Origin: Escherichia phage W70
Length of the DNA stretch: 64,000 bases
Reading direction: 5' to 3' (one strand)
Sequence record: OP778610
Part shown: positions 7,003 to 57,316 of the stretch, in pieces
Position numbering within the stretch: position 1 is the stretch's first letter
Layout of the letters: each line of letters opens with the position of its first letter
Notes under the pieces: generated by a model
Told to the model about the DNA's origin: nothing
Database searches by the model: none
What the model saw: the letters and a program-made list of their open reading frames with translations, nothing else
Made by a program: the position numbers and the translations under genes

Positions 7003-10000
7003 ATGGCTGAATATAATGATAAGGTCGTGGAAGCATTCGTTACTGCCCCAGATCCTGTCGTAACTACCACTGGTGGTGGAGTTATTTTTGACGGTATTGA
7101 AACAGAAGATACTGTATCAACCCTGCTGATTGGTGATGGTACTGCATCCTCCCCTTTACAAGCGCAAGTCAAACTTTCTCGCCGTGCTGGTAACGCCCTG
7201 ACTATCGTTCAATCCGATACCGAGCAAGGCTTGTTTGCTACTGCCGGAGATGCTAAAGTTTCAGCTTCTCAAGTGAACATTGCAAAATACGTAACTGCGG
7301 AAGAAGCTGCTGCACAAGGCGATGCAGGTCTGGAAGGTATTTTGGTAGAGCCTGTCCATGCGACCACCACCGCAGTTGGCGATGCCTTGGAAATTACCGC
7401 AGATCCTTTGACGGCTAAAAAATCCCGCATTTCCCTGAAAGTTTCCCCTTCCGCAACCAACGCGTTATCTGTAGAGTCAGATGGATTGGCAGTTAAAGTC
7501 TCTCCTGCCGTTGACAACAGCCTGCAAGTCCGTGAAGGTGCACTTTACGTAGCTCCTGTTGGTGCTGATATTTCTCAAGACCCAGGTAACAAACTGGAAC
7601 AGCGTTCAGATGGACTGTTCGTAGAAACCATCAAAGGCGACAAAGGTGATCAGGGCGAGCAAGGACCAGAAGGTCCTCAAGGCCCAGCAGGGGAAGCTGG
7701 ACCTGCTGGACCACAGGGTGAAAAAGGCGACAAAGGCGATCAAGGTGAAGTCGGCCCTGCTGGCGCAACTGGCCCTGCTGGCCTGACTGGTGCAACTGGT
7801 CCTCGTGGTATAGAAGGACCTCGTGGCCCTGCTGGTATTGGTATTAATATCCTAGACACCCTTGCATCTGAAGACCAATTACCTTCTGTTGTTGATCTTT
7901 CGAATGGGGATACCTATGTAATAGGACAGAGTTTCTTTACCGTTATCACTGAAGGTGGTATCAAACAATGGAGAAACGTAGGTAACTTCGCTGGACCTGA
8001 AGGTCTTTCTGCATTTGAAGTTGCTGAAACCGCAGGCTTTGTTGGAACAGTTGATGACTGGTTGGCTACCCTTCGTGGTGCTGATGGAATCGGTCTGCAA
8101 TTACTCGGTTCTTTCCAACGAATTGAAGACCTTCCGGCAGAAGAGAACAACCCAGGCGATGCCTACATCATTCAAGAAAAGATGTATGTTTGGACTGGTG
8201 ATACAGATGGCTGGCAACCTGTAGGACAGATCGGTCCTGAAGGTCGTTCTGCTTATCAGGTCTGGCTGGCTAACGGGAACGTAGGTTCTCAGCGTGAATT
8301 CCTTGAATCACTGAAAGGTGAGAAAGGTGATACTGGCGATCAGGGTCCTCAGGGTATCCCAGGTGCAGATGGTAAAAATGCTAACGCCATTAATATCTTA
8401 GGTTCCGTTGCAGATCAGGCGAGTTTGCCAGAAGGTGCAGATGCAGGTGATGCTTACCTGATCGGTACTAACGTATTCGTTTCTGATGGTGCTGGCAACT
8501 GGCAAGACTTGGGATCTTTCCAAGGTCCGCAAGGTCCTACTGGTGCTAAAGGCGACAAGGGGGACAAAGGGGACAAAGGTGACAAAGGCGATAAAGGTGA
8601 TGACAACTATGCCATCGCAGTTGCTAACGGTTTCCAAGGATCAGTAAATGAATACCTTGCATCTATCAAGGGTGAGAAAGGTGACGTTGGTGCAACTGGC
8701 CCTCGTGGATTAGCTGGTCCACAAGGTGAACAAGGTCCTGTTGGTGCGGGTCTGAATATCCTTGGCTCAGTAGCTTCCGAAGACCAATTGCCTCAGACTG
8801 GTATTAGTGAAGGTGATGCTTATCTGATTGAAGCTGATCTTTATATCTTTACTGGCGGTCAGTGGACTAACGTTGGTAACATCAAAGGTCCCCAAGGGGA
8901 TGTAGGACCACAAGGTCCACAAGGTCCTATTGGTCTGACTGGTGCACAAGGACCGCAGGGTGCAACAGGGGCACAAGGTCCTGCTGGTCCCCAAGGTGAG
9001 ACTGGTCCACAAGGTGGTATTGGTCCACAGGGCGAGACTGGCGAGAAAGGTGACAAGGGCGATAAGGGTGATAAGGGTGATACTGGAATTGGTATCGTTG
9101 CTCGTGGTATTGTTGCAACTCAAGAAGCACTTCCTGCCGATGCCACCACTGGTGACTTCTACGTTGTAGAGTCTGAAGGTAATGGTTATGCTTGGGACGG
9201 CACTGCATGGGTACTGACTGGTCTTACTCGTGGACCTCAGGGTCTGAAGGGCGACAAAGGCGACACTGGTGAGAAAGGAGACAAAGGAGACAAAGGCGAC
9301 GCAGGTGATGCACTGAAGCTGAAAGGTTTGGTTGCAACCTCCGCTGAACTTCCTTCTACTGCTGAATTAGGTGACTTCTACGTAGCTGAAGACACTGGAA
9401 TCGGTTACGCTTGGGATGGCGTGGAATTCGTTTCTGCCGGAACCGTTAGAGGACCGCAAGGTGAAGTAGGGCCTCAGGGTGAAATTGGCCCTCAAGGACC
9501 GCAAGGCGAGAAGGGAGATGCTGGCGACCAAGGACCTCAAGGATTGGTCGGTGAAACAGGTGCAAAAGGTGATAAAGGGGATAAGGGTGACGTTGGCTCT
9601 GGTCTGATTCCGAGAGGAACTTTACCGTCTCAAGCAGACCTTCCTCAAACTGGTGAAGTTGGTGACTTCTACGTAGCTAACGATACTGGTATTGGATATG
9701 CTTTTGACGGAACTACATTCGTAGAAGCTGGCGTTGCCCGTGGTCCACAGGGTGAACAAGGACCTCAGGGTGAACAGGGACCTCAAGGTCTTAAAGGGGA
9801 TACTGGTGAAACAGGTGCTCAGGGACCTCAAGGTGCTCAAGGTGAGAAAGGTGATACCGGAGAACGTGGAGAGGTAGGTCCGCAAGGTGATCAGGGACCG
9901 CAAGGTGAGCAAGGTCCTCAGGGTGATATCGGACCAGGTGTAGAGATCATTGGACGATTTGATACCTCTGATGAATTACCTTCCACGGGTACTTTGGGTC

Positions 10001-41848: not shown

Positions 41849-42148
41849 CTAGTGGCACGCCCCCCAGTTCATCCCTGTGAGGTATTCACCTGTTATGTGG
41901 ACAGGAGATTTCATCATTCGTGCTGCTTGCTCTACACAACGAACAACCATCTCTCCAACTGGACAATACATGATCGTGTAGATTCCATTCTCATCAGGAT
42001 CACACTTAAACTTCCCTTCTTTCACACAATGACCATCCAAGATCATTTTCTTAGCCAAGCAAGCTTCTACAAATTTCTTCGCGTCAGCTTCGTTGTCAAA
42101 GGTCCAGGTCTTCTTGAACTTGTGCGGTACTTCAAGCTGGTATTCATC
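41849..42148 (-). CDS. DNA polymerase (family A), exon 2
   Basis: Begins DEYQLEV (completing motif C HDE with the His that ends exon 1) and ends TGMNWGACH, resembling the T7 gp5 C-terminus as recalled. The Met at 42199 in the ORF track lies inside the intron. Confidence 0.75.
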   Translation of the reverse strand, partial: DEYQLEVPHKFKKTWTFDNEADAKKFVEACLAKKMILDGHCVKEGKFKCDPDENGIYTIMYCPVGEMVVRCVEQAARMMKSPVHITGEYLTGMNWGACH

Positions 42149-42920
42149 CAAAAGTTTAACGAGGTCGTTACTCTCGCCCACATCATTACATGTTGCCATA
42201 CGTTTTCACATATGGATCGGACTATATCACCATCCTTTTCAGGATGCTCCCCATTTCGACGGCACTTGCTCGCCTACGCCTCTCGGCTAGTCTCTGAACG
42301 TTAGGACCATGTGTAGTCACAAGAGATGTGTGTCCAGTTTTTACGGATTTTTATGGACCTTACCACGTTGTAAGGATAACCCATATCCCGAATCTGTGCA
42401 CTTCCATAACCTTGCCCCAGGAAGTTGCAAATCTCTCTAACCTCTTCTTCGGTAACTATACTTCTGGCGTTATCAACCCCTGTTGCTGAACGACATTTAT
42501 CAGCAAAGGTTTTCTTGATATTTCCACCACGAGTTGTCCATTGGAGGTTTGAATAGTGGTTATTCCTTTTGTCAGGCCACTTATGATCAACCTCCGGCAA
42601 ACCTTCAGGGTTTGGTACAAAACACTCTGCCACCAAAACGTGAACAGCCTTTGTAGTCGTCCTTTTGTTGAGATACAGACTTACAATAAGATACCCACGT
42701 CCATTATCAACTGCCGCCATTGGTTTCCCTCGACGACCTATAATGGTCCCGTCTTCATAAACCTTGTAACCGAAATAATCTTTATATTCCACATGATCCT
42801 CTTCGCTGCTGATTAACATAGTCTCATACTAACTCACACTTGAATTAATATCAACCTTAGTCTTCCAGCAATTAAAGGAGTTTTCGATGTGAGTTACCTC
42901 ACAAAGCCACAATGTTACTT
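42149..42920 (-). mobile_element. group I intron with HNH homing endonuclease, in DNA polymerase motif C
   Basis: About 772 nt between ...YYH and DEYQLEV; - strand carries R element GUUCAGAGACUA (42288-42299) and S-like GAUAUAGUCC (42219-42228); 5-prime exon ends in U, intron ends in G. Confidence 0.75.
42301..42819 (-). CDS. HNH homing endonuclease (intron-encoded)
   Basis: 172 aa; AVHVLVAECFVPNPEGLPEVDHKWPDKRNNHYSNLQW is typical of phage HNH endonucleases; sits wholly inside the intron upstream of the R element. Confidence 0.8.
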   Translation of the reverse strand: MLISSEEDHVEYKDYFGYKVYEDGTIIGRRGKPMAAVDNGRGYLIVSLYLNKRTTTKAVHVLVAECFVPNPEGLPEVDHKWPDKRNNHYSNLQWTTRGGNIKKTFADKCRSATGVDNARSIVTEEEVREICNFLGQGYGSAQIRDMGYPYNVVRSIKIRKNWTHISCDYTWS

Positions 42921-45251
42921 ATGGTAATAGATAATACGTCTAACGCCTTCATCATACCAACCTTTCTTAACCAACTGCCAGTGCAGGAGGATACCCACCA
43001 AGTCAAACAGTGCAGCACCACCATTCTGCTGATAAGCATTAAGCAATGAGTGTTTGGAACGAGTGTAGATCTTACGTCCATCAAGACCGTAGATGAATCG
43101 CTTACCGTTAGCTTCCCAAAACTTCTCTAGTGCTTCTTTACGACCTTTCAAGCCGATGTTGCTATCCCAGAATGCGTCGATTACTGCCTGGGCCTTCTCA
43201 AGAGTGATCCCCAGCATTGATGCAATCTTCGCTGCCTGTGCCCCGTACATAATTCCGTATGTCACACCTTTACCTTCACCACGAGAAACCTTCTTCCCTG
43301 CCGCTTTGGTATACGCTTCTGCGTTTCGGGAGTGAGCATCTCCAGATTCCATGATACGAAGATAAGCACCGCCATCGAAATCATAAGCGCCCCATGCTGC
43401 GATCATACCTTCTAGGTTTGAACCGTCGATACCTACCTGATATTTACCCTCAGAGGCTCTGAATAGTTCACGCATCTCTTTACCGAGAAGAACTTTCTCA
43501 TCCGGCTTAGGTACGTTTGCTACGATCGTATGCTTACGACGACCTGTGTTAGTTATTCCACTATAACGGGCCGGAAGTTTACCGTCAACTCGTAGACGTG
43601 GATGGTTAAGCCATCCGGTATCAACCTTCTCTTCTTTCAGCGGGTCAAGAACAGATCGTCGGTTACGTAAAGACAGCCATTTAACAATCTGTTTAGCCAT
43701 TTCACCATCTACTCGCTCAAGGTTAGGGCAAAGACCCTGTTGATCCTTAAGTTGTGGAGATGTAGGTAATGCACGAGCTTTCTTACGGAAAAACTTGAAC
43801 ATCTTTTCTTTATCTGACCACTGCTTAGGTGTGATCGCCAAGCTTTTCAGAATCAGATCACGATACTCCGTCTGATCCAAATCTTCAATGTATTGACGAA
43901 CAATCAGATCAACTTCACTATCGGGACGTTGTTTCTTGAACTGATCTTTAGTTGCATCCTTTGTACGCCAAATTGTTGGGACCCATCCTGCATCACGGAT
44001 CAGGAACTTCTTAACGTCGTCCTGGTTACCAATACGCATCGGAATCATAATGTCCGGCATCTTTTGTTCTTTGATATCCATCAAAGCACGAGCCATATCT
44101 TCCGGCGGCAAAGGAACAAGCCCTTGCTGCTTAACGTTTTGTGCACGGATAAAATCACCCATTTTGGATTCGTCCTCTACACCGTGTTCAACACAATACT
44201 TGATCGCGGCAGCAGTAAGAGATCCGTCAGCCTTAAACGGCTTACTTGGTGCACCTTTAAATTCCAAGGCTTCCCAATTGATATTATAACCTAACTTCTC
44301 TAACCATTTCCAACCTGTACCGGAAAGAGATCCATCACCCTTGAAAGGTTTGGATGGGAATGTCGGTTGTGCTGATTTCGACATCTCTTTCTTCGGCAAC
44401 TTAGGTTCAACCTCTAACTCAATGTCAGTCATCATCTTATCGATACGATCACGAAGCTTGAGTGCTTTTTCTTCATCAAATGAAACACCCTGAATTTCTT
44501 GCTCAATCATCAGGTAGTCAGTCAACATACCTCGACGCAGGGCATTCTTCCAGTTGATCATTTTATACTTCTTCTGATCTTTGTCTGTTTCATCCTTAAA
44601 CATGAAGCGTTTATCATCCGGCATGGATTCACAGGAGATCTCTTTCATCAGAGCATCCCACACCATTTCGTTGATAATTACGTCTTCAATAATACGATCG
44701 CAATACTTCCAAAGTGGAAGGCCACGCCAATCTTCAATCGCCACTTTCTGGTTAGCTACTCGCATACCCCAAGCTTCAAGCCCGTGTGGCCCTACAGGCT
44801 TCATTTTACCTGTGACGGGGTTCTTTACCATCTCAGGACAACCGCGAGGCAGAGGGCGATCTGGATACAATGTACGGGACATTGAAAGTGTATCGAAGAT
44901 GGTTACTTGTTTACCATTGATCGTCCCCATGCAACCAGGGTCTGCAAACATATCGTAAGTTGTTCCTAGCATCTTCTTAAACAACTGGAGGTCATAGCCG
45001 AAGATGTTGTGGATAGCAACTGCTTTAGGCTCGGTAACGAACCATTCGTTTAATTCTTCAAGGGTGCGGATCTTGAAGTTTTTACCTTTAGATTGGATAA
45101 ATTTAACAGCTTGATCGTAACCTTCTCGCTGTGGATCAAGAAAGATGTTCCAGTTATCTTTTTTGTACTCTTTAAACAAGATGCAGTGGATTAGATCAAC
45201 TTCTGTCAACAGACCATTAGCTTCCGCATCTCCAATAAATAAGCCTTTCAT
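42921..45251 (-). CDS. DNA polymerase (family A), exon 1
   Basis: N-terminal exonuclease motif (FIGDAEANGL), motif A-like GIDGSNLEG, motif B RGEGKGVTYGIMYGA; the track ORF terminates at an in-intron stop just after YYH. Confidence 0.85.
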
Positions 45252-47055: not shown

Positions 47056-48269
47056 TCTTTACCCCCTGCGATGCGTAACATTTGGATAGTTTTCTCCAGT
47101 TCTTTACGAGGTTTGGCAACTAAACGACGTTCGTGTCGCTTCAGGAAGCCTTCTAAGAACTCTAACGGTTTAAAGGATAACACTTCCTGTACTGATTCGT
47201 CAACAGCATACTCTTTCTGGACCATACGATAAACCGGATTTTTTACAGTTACAGGAGTATAACCCTTACTGATCGCCATTTGGGTAACAACACGCTTCTT
47301 GCCATCGGTCCATGAGTCATCGATCGGGAAAGAATCTTTACCGTATTTTTCAGAGAATAACTTAACTGCTGTTTTTGTCAAGTCATCCTGATCTTCTTGT
47401 GTTCGACTTTGACCCCAATAATAACCACCAGAGGTCTTAGCACGACGTTCCGAGAACAAAGCAAGGTCATCGTACTGCTCAAGAGCTAAACGCGCCAGAA
47501 GCTCGATATCGTCGCTTTCTGACAGCAGTCGGTTTGCTTCGTACTTAACTTCAAAAGTATTTGCACTATCACGATCACGGTCAAGGGTGAAAGCTTCTGG
47601 CTTGAAGTCGTAATCGAATTTAAAATTACCTGGAACACGAGTAACGAACAGTCCATTTACAAACAGGTTGCAGTCACCGCCTGTGATAGATCCATCCTCT
47701 TCTTCATTTTGGTATTCGTCCGCAGCATTATACAGTTTAGTATAAGCTTTGCCGCGATCATTCTGAATAACGACTGTACGTTCAGTGGTTGGCGCATAGT
47801 TATTCATAATTTCAGACATAGCACAATGAGGGATGTTTTCAATGATCACAGTTACAGTATTTGAATCACGGCCTGACAAAGCCTTTTCATGGATATCTAC
47901 CGCCAAAATATTCTGTTCGTATACTGTATCATAAACCATATTTGGAATCCAAAGATCATTACCATTTTCGATAACAATGTCTGCACCTTCACGAACAAGC
48001 ACCAGAAGACCTACTTTCAGACCTTCACCAAACTTACCGATCTTGCTGTCATCATCACGTTTGGTTGAAACACCCATCAAAAGGCCGGAAACGGGAACAA
48101 CACCGCCACGAGAGATGATTGTGATCTTACCTTGATTACTATCATCTTTACTAAAATAAATATTGAAATCTTCTGTATCGATAGCATTTTGCATTAGTTC
48201 ACGAGCACCTTGCCACCATGACCAGTGACTGACGTAATTTTCAGTGATGCTCAATTTAATCTGTTTCAT
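47052..48269 (-). CDS. GHKL-type ATPase-like protein
   Basis: 405 aa; N-box-like ELMQNAIDT at residues about 24-32 and G2-box-like GKFGEGLKVG about 50 residues later; no clear DxGxG box. Confidence 0.4.
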   Translation of the reverse strand: MKQIKLSITENYVSHWSWWQGARELMQNAIDTEDFNIYFSKDDSNQGKITIISRGGVVPVSGLLMGVSTKRDDDSKIGKFGEGLKVGLLVLVREGADIVIENGNDLWIPNMVYDTVYEQNILAVDIHEKALSGRDSNTVTVIIENIPHCAMSEIMNNYAPTTERTVVIQNDRGKAYTKLYNAADEYQNEEEDGSITGGDCNLFVNGLFVTRVPGNFKFDYDFKPEAFTLDRDRDSANTFEVKYEANRLLSESDDIELLARLALEQYDDLALFSERRAKTSGGYYWGQSRTQEDQDDLTKTAVKLFSEKYGKDSFPIDDSWTDGKKRVVTQMAISKGYTPVTVKNPVYRMVQKEYAVDESVQEVLSFKPLEFLEGFLKRHERRLVAKPRKELEKTIQMLRIAGGKE

Positions 48270-51449: not shown

Positions 51450-51962
51450 TCAGAAAGGTGCTTCGTCGTCGAAATCTACATCTTCAACTTCCGGTACATC
51501 AGGAATGTCACCTGCGGATTCAACGATACTCTGTTGTTCCCACGTAGGTTCCTCTGAAGGTTGGTCCATTTCTTCCATAACCTTCTTGATCTCTTCCTCT
51601 TGCTCACGCAGGAAGTTATCATCCGGCTCAGGAATATCTTCCTCTTTAATATCTGAACGAGTGAGATCACTGTTTTGTTCAGACAGAGGTTGAATCTCTG
51701 CTGCTTTAGGCTTAAAGTCTGGAGAACGATGATCATCTTCTGGATGAGCGGCATACCACTCACGAAGAGTTTCATAAGGACTCTCTAAGAAGCCCTCTGG
51801 CGGTTCCAGATAATCACCCGTATCAATGTCATAGAACACAGGGAATTTACCAGCACGACCGTGTTTACGGTCATCCAGAATAACAAAGTAAGAAGTGTTA
51901 CGTTGTTTCATCGGGAGTTCTGGATCTTTGTTACGTTCAATTCCCCACATATAGTAAGTATT
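51450..51962 (-). CDS. primase-helicase (T7 gp4-like), exon 3
   Basis: Begins about NTYYMWGIERN (resembling T7 LSDTIIALERN as recalled); ends with acidic tail ...EDVDFDDEAPF with terminal Phe. The track's N-terminal 64 residues are intron sequence. Confidence 0.7.
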   Translation of the reverse strand, partial: NTYYMWGIERNKDPELPMKQRNTSYFVILDDRKHGRAGKFPVFYDIDTGDYLEPPEGFLESPYETLREWYAAHPEDDHRSPDFKPKAAEIQPLSEQNSDLTRSDIKEEDIPEPDDNFLREQEEEIKKVMEEMDQPSEEPTWEQQSIVESAGDIPDVPEVEDVDFDDEAPF

Positions 51963-52808
51963 CTTTATGTCCAGGCTACTCGCTAGGTAGCCTCGGTGTG
52001 CTAAGACACCCGCCCATACTTTCATACAGGAACAGACTATATCATCACCTTTCGGTGCTCTCCACTTCGGAACCGCTTGGTCCCTACGCCTTTCGGCTAG
52101 TCGTTGAAGATTTTGCATATTCAGGATACATGGTCCAAGTATACAGATTGGCAATTTCTTTCCAATCCCTTTTGCTTCGGATGTTTAGAACAACCGCCCT
52201 TTTAACTTGAATGCCACTACTTTCGGCTATTCTCTTTGCAGTCCATCCCTCTGAAAGTAACTGGCATATCTTATGCACGTCGTTTTCAGAAAGTCCGGTA
52301 CTGTAATGATCTTGCCCTCTAATTGGTAATTTGTTTTCTATCGAGTGTCGAAGATTTTCCTCTTCTGTTACCCACTCAAGGTTATCTTTATGATTGTTCA
52401 ACTTATTACCGTCTTTATGATTTACCTCTGGTAAATTTAAAGGGTTTGGTATATAAGCCTTCGCGACCATCCTGTGAACATACTCAGGCTTCCGCTTACC
52501 ATTTAAGATAACATTAACAACAAAATACCCTGTACCCTTACTTAATGAATTTTTAAGGAATCTTCCTGAAAATTCACTAAAAACTTGTCCATCTTCAGTG
52601 ATAAAGTATGGACTGTTTTCTTCTATTCTTACCATAAGTCCCCTCTTTCATGGGACCAAGATCTAGAATATGCAACTTTCCTGCTGATTACCCAATCCTG
52701 TACCTTTTTAAACATTCACGCTTGCCTTTGCAGACTACGTTGTAGTGTTACAGGCTCTAAGGGCTTCCCAGCAATTCAAAGAGTTTTAGATGCGCTCTAC
52801 TGCTGTTA
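51963..52808 (-). mobile_element. group I intron with HNH homing endonuclease, in helicase motif H4
   Basis: About 846 nt; R-like CUUCAACGACUAGCC (about 52093-52107) and S-like GAUAUAGUCUG (about 52033-52043) on the - strand; 5-prime exon ends CGU, intron ends in G; 3-prime boundary good to roughly +/-20 nt. Confidence 0.7.
52084..52635 (-). CDS. HNH homing endonuclease (intron-encoded)
   Basis: 183 aa; YVHRMVAKAYIPNPLNLPEVNHKDGNKLNNHKDNLEW; similar to the polymerase-intron HNH. Confidence 0.8.
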   Translation of the reverse strand: MVRIEENSPYFITEDGQVFSEFSGRFLKNSLSKGTGYFVVNVILNGKRKPEYVHRMVAKAYIPNPLNLPEVNHKDGNKLNNHKDNLEWVTEEENLRHSIENKLPIRGQDHYSTGLSENDVHKICQLLSEGWTAKRIAESSGIQVKRAVVLNIRSKRDWKEIANLYTWTMYPEYAKSSTTSRKA

Positions 52809-53402
52809 ACGCATCATTGCACGGCTACCAGCAAACTGCGCTGACTGGACTTGACCACCAAATTCATGAGGCTTGCCAGATTCAGGCTTATTAAGGTGAC
52901 AGAAGCAATAATAAGTAAAGCCAAGCTCTTTTGCCAGTTTGGAGATCTCATCCGAGAATCGTTCCAGTTCCTGGTTAGCTTCAGAAGCACTCATACCTTG
53001 CACAAGACGAGTGATCGGGTCAATAAAGATATCTTCACAACCTTCTACGATCACTGCGTGACGGATAGCACCTTTCAGTTCATCCCATACTGCACGACCA
53101 TAGTTGTTATAATAGATAACACTATCACCAACTTCATCAGTAGCTTTGATCAGTTCTTCTTGCTTAAAGTATCCACGTTGACCTTCAAAAACTTCATTGC
53201 CCCAAATGTCACGGTAAGTTCCATCTTCTTGAGGAATCATTACCTTTTCGGCATTAACAAAGTCTTTATGATAACGCTTACCTGCGATCTTCTTACAAGT
53301 GATCTCGTTCTCTTCTTCAAACTTAAACACCGCAGCTTTTGACTTTTCAATACCCGTGATGTGTTCAACCATTTGGTTAAGAAGTTCAGACTTGCCCATT
53401 TT
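52809..53402 (-). CDS. primase-helicase (T7 gp4-like), exon 2
   Basis: Begins KMGKSELL (rest of Walker A), contains CFCHLNKPESGKPHEFGG and ends FAGSRAMMR, resembling T7 gp4 CHLKNPDKGKAHEEG...RGSGALRQ as recalled. Confidence 0.75.
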
Positions 53403-53688
53403 CACCGTTATGTTCGACAGGGTTCGCTACTCCCTGCCCGTTCTCTTACGAACTGCTACATGTCCCCATGCAGACCAGACTATATCTTCAACCTGTTTCC
53501 AGGTGCTATGCACTTCGGACCGCTTGGCCCTACTCTACTCGATTCAAGAGTCTAGCTCTTGTCTTTCGATAGTCGTTGCTCCTTCCTTTTTCAAGGCTTG
53601 GATCAGGATTACGTGTTCTACGCTTCCCCTGAGTTCACATAGTATTTAGTCGAGGCATCTCTGCCAAGGCTGGCTAGACTTAATGTTT
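53403..53688 (-). ncRNA. ORF-less group I intron in the helicase Walker A codons
   Basis: 286 nt between ...FIGAG and KMGKS; - strand contains P/Q-like CAGGGGAAG and AAUCCUGAUCC, R-like CAACGACUAUCG and S-like AAGAUAUAGUCU in the canonical order; 5-prime exon ends in U, intron ends in G. Confidence 0.7.
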
Positions 53689-54624
53689 ACCAGCACCGAT
53701 GAAGTAACCTTCACCTGGACGACGACCCAAGGTAAGCTTGGTCATGGTGGGCCAAGGGAACTTCTTGCCGAGTTTAGGGATCTCATGTGCCTTTTCGCGG
53801 AACTGTGAATAAGTCGAGAAACCATCAGGCACATATTCTTTTGGCTTCATTGCAGCCCAAAACAACTGATCAGAAAGACCTTTGTTATACATATCGCAAG
53901 GGTCCATATCTTCTGGAATATCCACGACCTTCATTTGTGGAATTACAGAGTATACCGCTGCAACTGCATCTTTACCTTTCATGATCCCTTTGGCCTTCTC
54001 TGCTTCTGTCGCACGGTCAGCATCGAAAGCTACGATAATCTCTTCAAACTTACTCAGAAGCTTATAGTTATTCTTCTGTGATAAGTTTTGCACGGCATTG
54101 GATGTACCGTTAGAGATAGATACAACTGTGAAGTTTGGTTTACGAGTGGAACCATCCTTCGGTTTGTACTTCTCTGTCAATACCTGCCACAAGATTGCAG
54201 CATCGTATTCACCTTCAGTGATAAAGATCATACGTTTGGAAGACTTGTTTGCACCTTCCAGACCAAACATATCACAGGCTACAGATTGGAAACCGATAGT
54301 TGTAAAGTGCCCTTTCTGTTGCTTAGGGATCGTAAGATCACGCTTTTTAAAACCTACAACCTTACCTTCCAATGTGTACGGAAAATAATGTGCTTCTGGA
54401 GTCATACCGTCTTTAGCTGACAACTTGGTACGAATACCAAATCGTTTAGCTGTCTTTTCGTCGATACCACGCTCAGGGATACTTTTACACGGGTAAGTCA
54501 ATACATCTTCAACTGTTTCTTCCACACGAGACACACCGCCGCCATAATTACGTGCCACCGAAGCTTTAGGGTTTTTATGTCCAAACTTATAACCGCCAAA
54601 CAAACTTTCGCCAATAGTGCTCAT
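53689..54624 (-). CDS. primase-helicase (T7 gp4-like), exon 1
   Basis: TOPRIM-like motifs (FITEGEYDAAIL, VAFDADRATEAEKA), then helicase N-terminus ending ...RRPGEGYFIGAG; SD AAGGAG plus ATG at 54624; no Cys4 zinc finger before the RNA polymerase domain. Confidence 0.8.
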
Positions 54625-55957: not shown

Positions 55958-57316
55958 TTACTGATTGTTGAAAATGCTCGGGAACTTCTCGTGATAGAAG
56001 TCTACAACATCCTGATCAACGATGATATCTTTTACTCGCAGACGCTTCATCAGGCGAAGACCTTCTACGGATGTGGCACGAGATAGCATGACGTAGGCTT
56101 GCCCAGGTGTAAAAGTACCAAAACCAAGATCAATATTTACTTTACCCAAGGTAAGACCCTGCGCTTTATGACCCGTGATCGCATAGCCTAACTTAAATGG
56201 GTACTGGATATACTCACCGATAGATTTATCGACAAGAACAGTTTTTTCAACCATCTTCTTGATCGTCTTTTTGGTTCCGTCAGGCATATCCACCTCTTCC
56301 TCTTCAAGCATCATCTTTTTCTCAGGTACTTGAGCAACGTTGTTCCATGTTGCAGGGCCGATTGGAACCATCTTGCCATCGATATCTACAACAACAAATG
56401 TTTTTGCGATACGACGAACAATACCGACTGTACCGTTGACATAATCAGGCACTTTCTTCTTCTGATCATTGTCGTTAACAACAATCATTACTTTAAGACC
56501 TTCCTTGAGAAAGAGTTTTTCATTAACTGGACGTTCAACAAACTCACCAGTGATACGGGCATTGAATTCATGCTGTTCAGCATTAATCTTTGCGTACTCT
56601 TTGTTGTTGATCTCTTCTGCCAGCTTGTTTGTGGTAGTTAAAGTTACTGCCCCGTCAAGTGGACGACCAAAGCAACGCTGGTTAAAGAAGTTAACAGCAT
56701 CAGGGATGTTTTTCCCGATACGAATATTGTTCAGGTGTTCTGCAAACACTGGATCACTTTGGCGATGAACTTTAGGAAGATAAGCATAGGTCAGATTCAA
56801 AGATTCCCAAGTTTCACACCCAAAAGGAATTTCTTTCCCGTGCAGTTCACGGAACAAAGGAACCTCTTCTTTCTTAAGTACAGGCTTGATCTGGAAGCCG
56901 TCACCAAACATGATGATCTGGAGTCCACCAAAAGGCTTATCGGATTTACGATGGTGGCGAAGTTTCATATCGATTTCTTTCAGTTTGTCACTTCGAGTCA
57001 TACCGATCTCATCGAACACGATACCATCGAGTGCATCAGATGCCATAAGCATAGCTGCCTTTTTAGATTTTGCCTTATAATCCTCGGAAGTTGTGACACC
57101 AAAGGTTAAACCAAACGCTTTATGAGTCGTAACACCACGGATGTTTAATGATGCCACGCCTGTTGGACCAACAAACAGAAAACTATCAGCAAAGAAGTCA
57201 CGCAGTGCTGCGATCATCATACTTTTACCACTACCACCAGGTCCGGTGATAAAAACGTTTTCCCCATTCATGATTGCTTGCATTGCCGCTTCGTTACCGA
57301 TCACTGTCTTAGTCAT
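55958..57316 (-). CDS. Dda/RecD-like superfamily 1 DNA helicase
   Basis: 452 aa; Walker A FITGPGGSGKS, Walker B-like GIVFDEIGM, C-terminal helicase motifs (GYAITGHKAQGLT, AYVMLSRAT). Confidence 0.75.
   Translation of the reverse strand: MTKTVIGNEAAMQAIMNGENVFITGPGGSGKSMMIAALRDFFADSFLFVGPTGVASLNIRGVTTHKAFGLTFGVTTSEDYKAKSKKAAMLMASDALDGIVFDEIGMTRSDKLKEIDMKLRHHRKSDKPFGGLQIIMFGDGFQIKPVLKKEEVPLFRELHGKEIPFGCETWESLNLTYAYLPKVHRQSDPVFAEHLNNIRIGKNIPDAVNFFNQRCFGRPLDGAVTLTTTNKLAEEINNKEYAKINAEQHEFNARITGEFVERPVNEKLFLKEGLKVMIVVNDNDQKKKVPDYVNGTVGIVRRIAKTFVVVDIDGKMVPIGPATWNNVAQVPEKKMMLEEEEVDMPDGTKKTIKKMVEKTVLVDKSIGEYIQYPFKLGYAITGHKAQGLTLGKVNIDLGFGTFTPGQAYVMLSRATSVEGLRLMKRLRVKDIIVDQDVVDFYHEKFPSIFNNQ

Follow-up and report, generated by a model that had tools for sequence, protein, structure and literature searches.

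Escherichia Phage W70 Probably Carries a Small Group I Intron without an Endonuclease Gene in the P-Loop Codons of Its Primase/Helicase Gene

Phage group I introns located in conserved motifs of replication genes, with or without an endonuclease, are well known, and a 2014 review named polymerases, ribonucleotide reductases, and terminases as their typical targets (PMC3984707). In the subfamily Vequintavirinae they were described in the genes for terminase, DNA polymerase, ribonucleotide reductase, and NAPRT (PMC7344957, PMC3606486), including the terminase introns of rV5 (PMC3606486). A literature search found no paper on a group I intron in a phage primase/helicase gene. The subject of this work is an element that is very probably such an intron, found in a stretch of 64,000 nucleotides (nt), referred to here as the window, from the Vequintavirinae coliphage Escherichia phage W70 (sequence record OP778610). 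The host gene codes for a primase/helicase like gp4 of phage T7 and, as is the case for the neighboring genes and for the window exons, introns, endonuclease ORFs, and second helicase gene whose coordinates are given below, lies on the minus strand. The element, intron 1 (53406..53688), is interpreted as a 283-nt group I intron placed between the Gly and Val codons of the Walker A motif, or P-loop (GAG^VKMGKS, where the caret marks the insertion point). A second intron, intron 2, interrupts the same gene 597 nt downstream.

The T4 td, nrdB, and nrdD (sunY) introns of subgroup IA2 offer the best-known comparison. Like them, intron 1 is a small intron in the conserved catalytic region of a phage DNA-metabolism gene, and the two groups share the P7.1/P7.2 and P9.1/P9.2 helices, an endonuclease open reading frame (ORF), where present, that grows out of P6a, and an early in-frame stop; the T4 features in this comparison are established knowledge, and the helices were tested for the window intron only. 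The differences are that the host gene is a gp4-type primase/helicase of another phage family, that the endonuclease of the relatives of intron 1 is of the HNH type whereas T4 I-TevI and I-TevII are GIY-YIG enzymes, and that intron 1 is known here from its sequence and fold only. Certrevirus and rV5-like phages (CB7, phiTE, rV5) belong to the same subfamily as the window phage and have HNH-containing introns in replication and packaging genes. However, the primase/helicase gene is uninterrupted in CB7, phiTE, CR3, and most relatives, and intron 1 has no ORF. A further parallel is found in the inteins of DnaB/gp41 helicases (PMC4760082, PMC2677866), which are likewise selfish elements and, by the same homing-site logic, occupy the ATPase motif that is best conserved in a replicative helicase. 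Inteins splice at the protein level, while intron 1 would do so at the RNA level.

The primase/helicase gene was compared with those of five close relatives from the phage collection, the Vequintavirinae coliphages A73, LTH01, A5-4, A7_1, and UPEC06. In A73 (OP778609.1) and vB_EcoM-LTH01 the gene, annotated as "DNA primase/helicase", is an uninterrupted stretch of 2046 nt, and the alignment revealed two clean insertions in the window, of which intron 1 is exactly absent from A73 and LTH01 and intron 2 from all five relatives. Exon 1 (53689..54624; codons 1-312) aligns with A73 nt 1-936, comprises the primase/TOPRIM part as well as the beginning of the helicase domain, and ends ...GYFIGAG. Exon 2 (52809..53405; codons 313-511, from VKMGKSELL to FAGSRAMMR) aligns with A73 nt 937-1533; according to the T7 gp4 alignment it completes Walker A and contains Walker B as well as motif 3, and its final base is U52809. 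Exon 3 (51450..51962; codons 512-681 and the stop) aligns with A73 nt 1534-2046 and supplies the rest of motif 4 and an acidic C-terminal tail. Excision of 53406..53688 and 51963..52808 generates a coding sequence (CDS) of 2046 nt and 681 amino acids that, compared to A73, includes nine substitutions and no gaps. The spliced product matched Pfam DnaB_C at 1.1e-7, above its cut-off, and Toprim_2 weakly, and the T7 gp4 structures 5ikn, 6n7i, and 1q57 matched residues 51-529 at E ~1e-20 with the P-loop and motif 4 aligned. Such matches point to a protein of the T7 gp4 type (DnaB family, SF4), in which a TOPRIM primase part would be followed by a RecA-like helicase domain.

Without excision the gene is read as separate ORFs. 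The first (53680..54624) has 314 amino acids and terminates with ...GYFIGAGKH, as the exon 1 frame encounters a TAA stop (53680..53682; intron nt 7-9, located in the P1 loop) two codons inside intron 1, after GAG-K-H. The unspliced mRNA would then direct the synthesis of a truncated 314-amino-acid product. The second (52806..53405) has 199 amino acids and a GTG start, and reads (M)KMGKSELL. Intron 1 itself has no sense-strand ORF longer than 28 amino acids, and therefore no homing endonuclease gene was found inside it. A first-pass annotation of the window had already described an ORF-less insertion among the Walker A codons of the primase-helicase gene, which agrees with these observations.

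The junctions were located by nucleotide alignment to the intron-less gene and read ...GGU GCU GGU^AAACAUUAAG ... GAACAUAACG^GUG AAA AUG GGC. The 5' splice-site U is U53689, the last base of exon 1. The omega-G is G53406, the last nucleotide of the conserved tail GAACAUAACG at 53415-53406, a boundary fixed by the intron-less alleles. A search against Rfam produced a full-length match to RF00028 (model positions 1-253) at 53456..53721 with 70.4 bits, compared to a gathering score of 50, and E=8e-16. This was the sole match that reached a gathering threshold across the 64-kb window.

The RNA was folded both as a single sequence and as part of an alignment of nine introns. The set consisted of the window intron; those of A7_1 and UPEC06 with the ORF loop trimmed; those of Klebsiella phages Roth32 and RCIP0089, Escherichia phage ULINTec6, and a Zobellviridae contig; and two DNA-polymerase introns, one from a Pseudomonas Pakpunavirus (GenBank Intron_gpI) and the other from an Acinetobacter phage. 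RNAalifold, used without guidance, recovered P3 (53642-53636 with 53512-53506), P4 (53632-53627 with 53608-53603), P5 (53623-53611), the P6/P6a hairpin (53601-53581; CCAAG-CCUU-GAAA-AAGG-AAGG), P7.2 (53530-53517), P8 (53504-53491), P9 (53473-53456), P9.1 (53453-53440), and P9.2 (53438-53416). Compensatory changes were present in 29 of the 52 pairs. After addition of the P7 pseudoknot (53574-53570 with 53482-53478), standard pairs occupied 99.0% of the cells, as opposed to 30-40% when the 3' partners were slid by 1-3 columns; both sides changed in 29 of 57 pairs, with four of the five P7.2 pairs being compensatory, and none of 500 shuffles reached the observed values. P7 is invariant across the nine introns, so its covariation neither supports nor contradicts it.

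The centroid fold of the single sequence (z=-2.34 versus shuffles) included P1, P2, P4 to P6a, P7.1, P7.2, P8, and P9 to P9.2, with P2 (53665-53654) and P7.1 (53569-53539) being assigned from this fold; P1 was also part of the minimum free energy structure. In P1 the exon strand 53694-53689 (GCUGGU) pairs with the internal guide sequence 53674-53669 (GCCAGC) in such a way that a U53689·G53674 pair is formed at the splice site. This helix could not be aligned across hosts. Nonetheless, in the related introns each guide matches its own exon, the pairs being GCUGGU/GCCAGC in the window, GGCGU/GCGCC in the Autographiviridae, and AUGGGU/GCCCAU in both the Zobellviridae contig and the Pakpunavirus. 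The first-pass annotation had suggested folding as a check of the P1-P9 architecture, and the P, Q, R, and S core elements do occur in the canonical order in which it had recognized them. Group I subgroup IA, to which T4 td belongs, is marked by two additional helices, P7.1 and P7.2, that follow P7 and precede the 3' strand of P3. On the basis of the modeled P7.1 and P7.2, intron 1 would belong to the phage introns of subgroup IA, an assignment that applies to IA as a whole and is separate from the distinction between IA2 and IA1.

An insertion that is exactly absent from sister genomes and whose fold shows strong covariation is far beyond what chance would produce. The identity proposed by the first-pass annotation is upheld by the RF00028 score, the U·G pair in P1, the omega-G, the P3-P9 core with the P7 pseudoknot, the covariation, the intron-less alleles, and the restored 681-amino-acid ORF. 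We estimate a probability of roughly 0.9 that 53406..53688 is a genuine, splicing-competent group I intron. Several points weigh on the other side. The covariation set was limited to nine sequences, among which several are close relatives, and the loops with ORFs had been trimmed manually. Inspection of the sequence found no convincing P10 between AAGUCUA, located just 5' of the guide, and GUGAAA, and for this reason the preference for G53406 over G53403 as the last intron nucleotide comes from protein conservation and the GAACAYAACG tail described below rather than from RNA pairing. The splicing of intron 1 is itself something that we infer from sequence. Finally, one HNH-bearing insertion of CB7 showed no detectable splicing (PMC7344957), a precedent indicating that a group I-like insertion is no guarantee of splicing.

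HNH-bearing introns in other genes of Certrevirus CB7 were observed to splice by reverse transcription PCR (PMC7344957). This finding and the intact, covarying group I architecture led us to infer that intron 1 is removed by guanosine-initiated self-splicing. In the proposed pathway the guide GCCAGC would pair with the last six bases of the exon, GCUGGU, and the U·G pair would mark the 5' splice site, which would be attacked by an external guanosine. G53406 would then enter the G-binding site in P7, and ligation of the exons would restore GGU^GUG, with a predicted spliced junction GGU^GUGAAAAUGG. Intron 2 would be removed likewise from motif 4, with a predicted junction AUGCGU^AAUACUUAC. The doubly spliced mRNA alone would encode the 681-amino-acid enzyme of ~77 kDa, and the predicted junction peptides are ...YFIGAGVK and AMMRNTYYMWGIER. 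Since the exon 1 frame runs two codons into the intron before it meets a stop, and since the P-loop codons are divided over two exons, helicase function needs the removal of intron 1. Dependence of helicase activity on splicing had been anticipated by the first-pass annotation and has to be extended to the second intron, as it follows from the sequence that a functional helicase would also require the removal of intron 2.

A very unlikely alternative is that no splicing takes place and separate primase and helicase polypeptides assemble after translation. Split proteins have a precedent in NrdA of phage Aeh1, which is split by mobE and was described as assembling from separate polypeptides; it is cited, together with the non-splicing insertion, in the CB7 paper (PMC7344957). 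Moreover, exon 2 opens with GTG, there is an ATG two codons further on, and gene callers do call a separate ORF at this location. However, the break lies inside the contiguous P-loop (GAG and VKMGKS), and from the structure of P-loop NTPases a working nucleotide-binding site would be very unlikely to form from two chains. In addition, the sequence has no convincing Shine-Dalgarno at a normal distance before GTG53405 or ATG53399. The ribozyme helices are all intact and show compensatory changes, one of them between two ORF-less copies, a pattern that is sensible only if the fold is under selection.

Another alternative concerns the 3' end rather than the nature of the element. The first-pass annotation had given the intron 286 nt, from 53403 to 53688, with exon 1 ending ...YFIGAG, a U and a G at the boundaries, exon 2 starting at KMGKSELL, and a joined P-loop GAGKMGKS. 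The 5' half of this proposal, including U53689, was retained. The 3' end is off by three nucleotides, as the boundary G is G53406, upstream of 53403. An intron ending at G53403 would also terminate in a G and preserve the reading frame, GAGKMGKS still satisfies GxxxxGK[ST], and the lack of an identified P10 leaves no pairing to tell the two guanosines apart. Nevertheless, we consider the 286-nt version extremely improbable. It would remove a Val that none of the uninterrupted homologues compared lacks: the protein reads GYFIGAG-V-KMGKSELL at site 1 in A73 and LTH01, and GAGVKMGKS is kept in homologues down to 55% identity, such as those of Cronobacter phage CR3, Erwinia phage pEp_SNUABM_01, and Vibrio phage 11895-B1. 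Only with the Val is the alignment to T7 gp4 gap-free (igagvkmgks / tsgsgmgks; 5ikn_D, E=1.9e-20). Furthermore, related introns of other phages share the tail GAACAYAACG directly before unrelated exon sequences (AGG, AAG, GUA), and it is the excision of 283 nt that yields the exact 2046-nt length of the intron-less gene. All this argues for a mature P-loop GAGVKMGKS and a predicted exon 2 that starts at 53405 with GTG (Val).

That the element is a dead intron in a decaying pseudogene, with replication depending on other helicases such as the PIF1-like one encoded nearby at 55958..57316, is hardly credible: the endonuclease gene is lost and two introns in one gene are a heavy load, but the three exons are open and in frame, they differ from A73 in 9 of 681 residues for 97 nucleotide differences and from the second two-intron genome described below (L027) in 8 residues for 77 exon nucleotide differences, mostly synonymous changes that imply purifying selection on the spliced protein, and the two-intron allele persists in two lineages 2.5% apart.

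Intron 2 (51963..52808) is an 846-nt group I intron that interrupts helicase motif 4 between ...SRAMMR and NTYYMWGIERN, a location within the motif according to the T7 gp4 alignment (gsrammr^ntyy versus T7 gsgalrq^lsdt). It begins UAACAGCAGUAGAGCGCAU and ends ...GACAUAAAG, and its P1 joins the exon sequence AUGCGU to GCGCAU in the intron, so that here too a U·G pair falls on the splice site. The Rfam match was weak (52013..52301, 25.3 bits, E=0.0014 in a local search), with the 3' half of the core at high posterior probability. When the P6a loop was trimmed, the RNA folded into P1, P4, an extended P5, a 10-bp P6a, P7.1, P7.2, P8, P9, P9.1, and P9.2. The P6a loop holds an HNH homing-endonuclease ORF (52084..52635, 183 amino acids; Pfam HNH_3, E=1.6e-8) whose 3' end continues through the 5' strand of P7 into P7.1. 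In the phage collection all tblastn relatives of this protein were less than 45% identical.

Additional copies of the locus, designated here with L numbers, were obtained from Sequence Read Archive (SRA) assemblies through a look-up by exact protein sequence. At site 1, A73 and LTH01 carry no insertion; A5-4, A7_1, UPEC06, L022-L028, and the window do. In A5-4, A7_1, and UPEC06, all of which lack intron 2, an insertion of ~750 nt occupies the identical site. Its ribozyme arms are 100% (A5-4), 99.6% (A7_1), and 91% (UPEC06) identical to window intron 1, and a ~470-nt cassette with a 165-amino-acid HNH/helix-turn-helix ORF replaces the GAAA loop of P6a. The site-1 intron of the three phages is the same element as window intron 1. 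Intact HNH genes were also found at site 1 in L022 and L025. Two assemblies have broken HNH genes within intact ribozyme arms, L026 (SRR23005054) through a nonsense codon at position 127 and L028 (SRR25909051) through a 1-nt frameshift near codon 24; both are natural intermediates between the ORF-bearing and ORF-less forms. The two-intron allele recurs in the independent assembly L027 (SRR28047936), whose intron 1 measures 283 nt and has no ORF and whose intron 2 measures 846 nt; intron 2 is also present in L021. Viral and metagenome contigs scanned for an exact match to the exon 1/intron 1 junction, and viral contigs scanned likewise for the exon 2/intron 2 junction, gave no hit.

The population therefore includes sites that have no intron, the mobile intron in its complete form, two endonuclease genes that were inactivated independently, and the intron that has no endonuclease gene. 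A series of empty, complete, decaying, and endonuclease-less forms is what the homing cycle of such elements is expected to produce. The P6a hairpin varies accordingly: CCUC-[UCAACC...ORF...GGUUGA]-GAGG in the ORF-bearing form, CCUU-GAAA-AAGG in the window, and CCUC-GAAA-GAGG in L027. In none of the A5-4, A7_1, and UPEC06 records are the primase/helicase exons joined, and their ~750-nt intron is unannotated in GenBank; in A7_1 (OP795442.1, 2755-3258) a reverse-strand "hypothetical protein" is recorded over the intact forward-strand 165-amino-acid HNH gene.

Sequences around the insertion sites bear the marks expected from homing. LTH01, with an empty site 1, and UPEC06, with an occupied one, share a backbone, and most of the differences between them form a cluster, CDS nt 894-1023, that surrounds site 1 (nt 936). 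Another cluster of differences, at nt 1533-1554 directly after site 2, separates the window from each of the five relatives, which are all without intron 2. Mismatch clusters beside both sites are taken as co-conversion tracts, as homing predicts. The comparison of the window with L027 gave divergences of 2.5% in exon 1, 0.7% in intron 1, 3.5% in exon 2, 0.24% in intron 2, and 6.4% in exon 3, so that the introns are islands of near-identity within diverged exons and have co-converted flanks. The two nucleotides that differ in intron 1 pair with each other to close the GAAA loop, as U-A in the window and as C-G in L027. The near-identity of the introns and this compensatory change in P6a indicate that the RNA is still selected to fold.

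The wider genome is also mosaic. The window and A73 differ at four positions over 1-47717, in the same coordinates, and from 47718 onward by ~5% with indels. The window phage is best described as a mosaic sibling of A73 with a probable recombination breakpoint near 47718, which, counted in window coordinates, precedes the primase/helicase gene by ~3.7 kb.

The origin of the ORF-less form can be approached from the same alleles. Having no endonuclease, intron 1 cannot initiate homing itself. Its spread would have to depend on ordinary recombination, on co-conversion with a nearby homing element (intron 2 lies at a distance of 597 nt), or on an endonuclease that a co-infecting relative provides in trans, and we offer co-conversion with intron 2 and the supply in trans as hypotheses only. 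We favor loss of the endonuclease gene over an ancestral ORF-less state, since the arms are identical to those of ORF-bearing A5-4, the more diverged UPEC06 has the ORF, and decay intermediates exist. Against loss, the short hairpin belongs to this intron family as one of its native modules and cannot be derived from the ORF-bearing form simply by deleting a sub-string, and it is possible that window intron 1 arose by conversion from an ORF-less relative. An IMG/VR search with the ORF-less P6 junction retrieved a single hit, the contig L011 (IMGVR_UViG_3300017748_000118), which has an unrelated ORF-less group I intron (8330-8575, minus strand; Rfam 64.8 bits) in a capsid-like gene. This intron shares with window intron 1 an identical ~42-nt module consisting of P4', P6, J6/7, and P7, which suggests that modules may be exchanged between introns. 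It was considered as another copy of intron 1 and rejected because only a ~50-nt module is common to both and the intron is a different one.

Introns with a related core were also detected in the Walker A codons of the homologous protein of other phages: the Klebsiella Gajwadongvirus phages Roth32, RCIP0089, and vB_Kp_Z1, the Escherichia Vectrevirus ULINTec6, and the Zobellviridae contig (L010). Among the Gajwadongvirus introns, that of Roth32 (Rfam 84.7 bits) has no ORF, while an HNH gene is present in another copy. These introns are mostly annotated as separate ORFs. The HNH gene in the ULINTec6 record is labeled "HNH homing endonuclease # Phage intron", and automated annotation has therefore noticed such insertions. 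The insertion points are different: GAG^VKMGKS in the window, inside the Val codon of GAG(T/S)GV^GKT in the Autographiviridae, and GAAQKMG^KS in the Zobellviridae contig. Differing points within Walker A look like independent invasions rather than one inherited site. The gp4-type P-loop is a recurrent intron target, at three positions in three phage families, in line with the rule that the best-conserved codons are the ones in which homing elements insert. Separately, an HNH-bearing insertion with a related core was observed at another site of this gene family, further upstream and near the primase-helicase linker (...FVDAL...), in the podophages Vibrio phage JSF38 and Erwinia phage VL73.

Other features of the window deserve mention. 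A third group I candidate is located at 42197-42930 (Rfam 39.7 bits, E=1e-6, a sub-gathering score owing to an internal ORF). It contains an HNH-like ORF of 172 amino acids (42301-42819) and lies between the DNA polymerase ORFs 42915-45251 and 41849-42199. A73 shares this arrangement, with two "DNA-directed DNA polymerase" CDSs flanking a hypothetical protein. Just upstream of the primase/helicase operon there is a gene for a PIF1/RecD-like helicase of 452 amino acids (55958-57316), a possible second helicase, whose Pfam PIF1 match comes from a gene of identical length in related contigs.

We also considered whether the splicing efficiency of the P-loop intron and intron 2 could act as a regulated switch that adjusts, in the course of infection, how much 314-amino-acid stand-alone primase is made relative to the full primase-helicase. 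The survival of an ORF-less intron in two lineages that have diverged and the compensation in P6a are compatible with this idea, but plain selection for spliceability explains them equally well, and we regard the switch as unlikely. Were it true, the ORF-less intron would be a domesticated regulator kept after the loss of its endonuclease, beyond a tolerated parasite.

The most direct consequence of these findings is for annotation. The primase/helicase gene of the window phage, like those of A5-4, A7_1, and UPEC06, was deposited as two or three unrelated ORFs named "hypothetical protein" or "primase/helicase", and it should be represented as one joined CDS with intron features. Intron 1 is an ordinary kind of phage mobile element, and its description leaves current understanding unchanged. 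The locus is a compact natural system in which the gain, decay, and loss of a homing-endonuclease gene can be followed in phage populations, possibly with hitch-hiking between adjacent introns, and its value lies mainly in the corrected annotation and in offering a neat case, from nature, of the cycle by which endonuclease genes are gained and lost.

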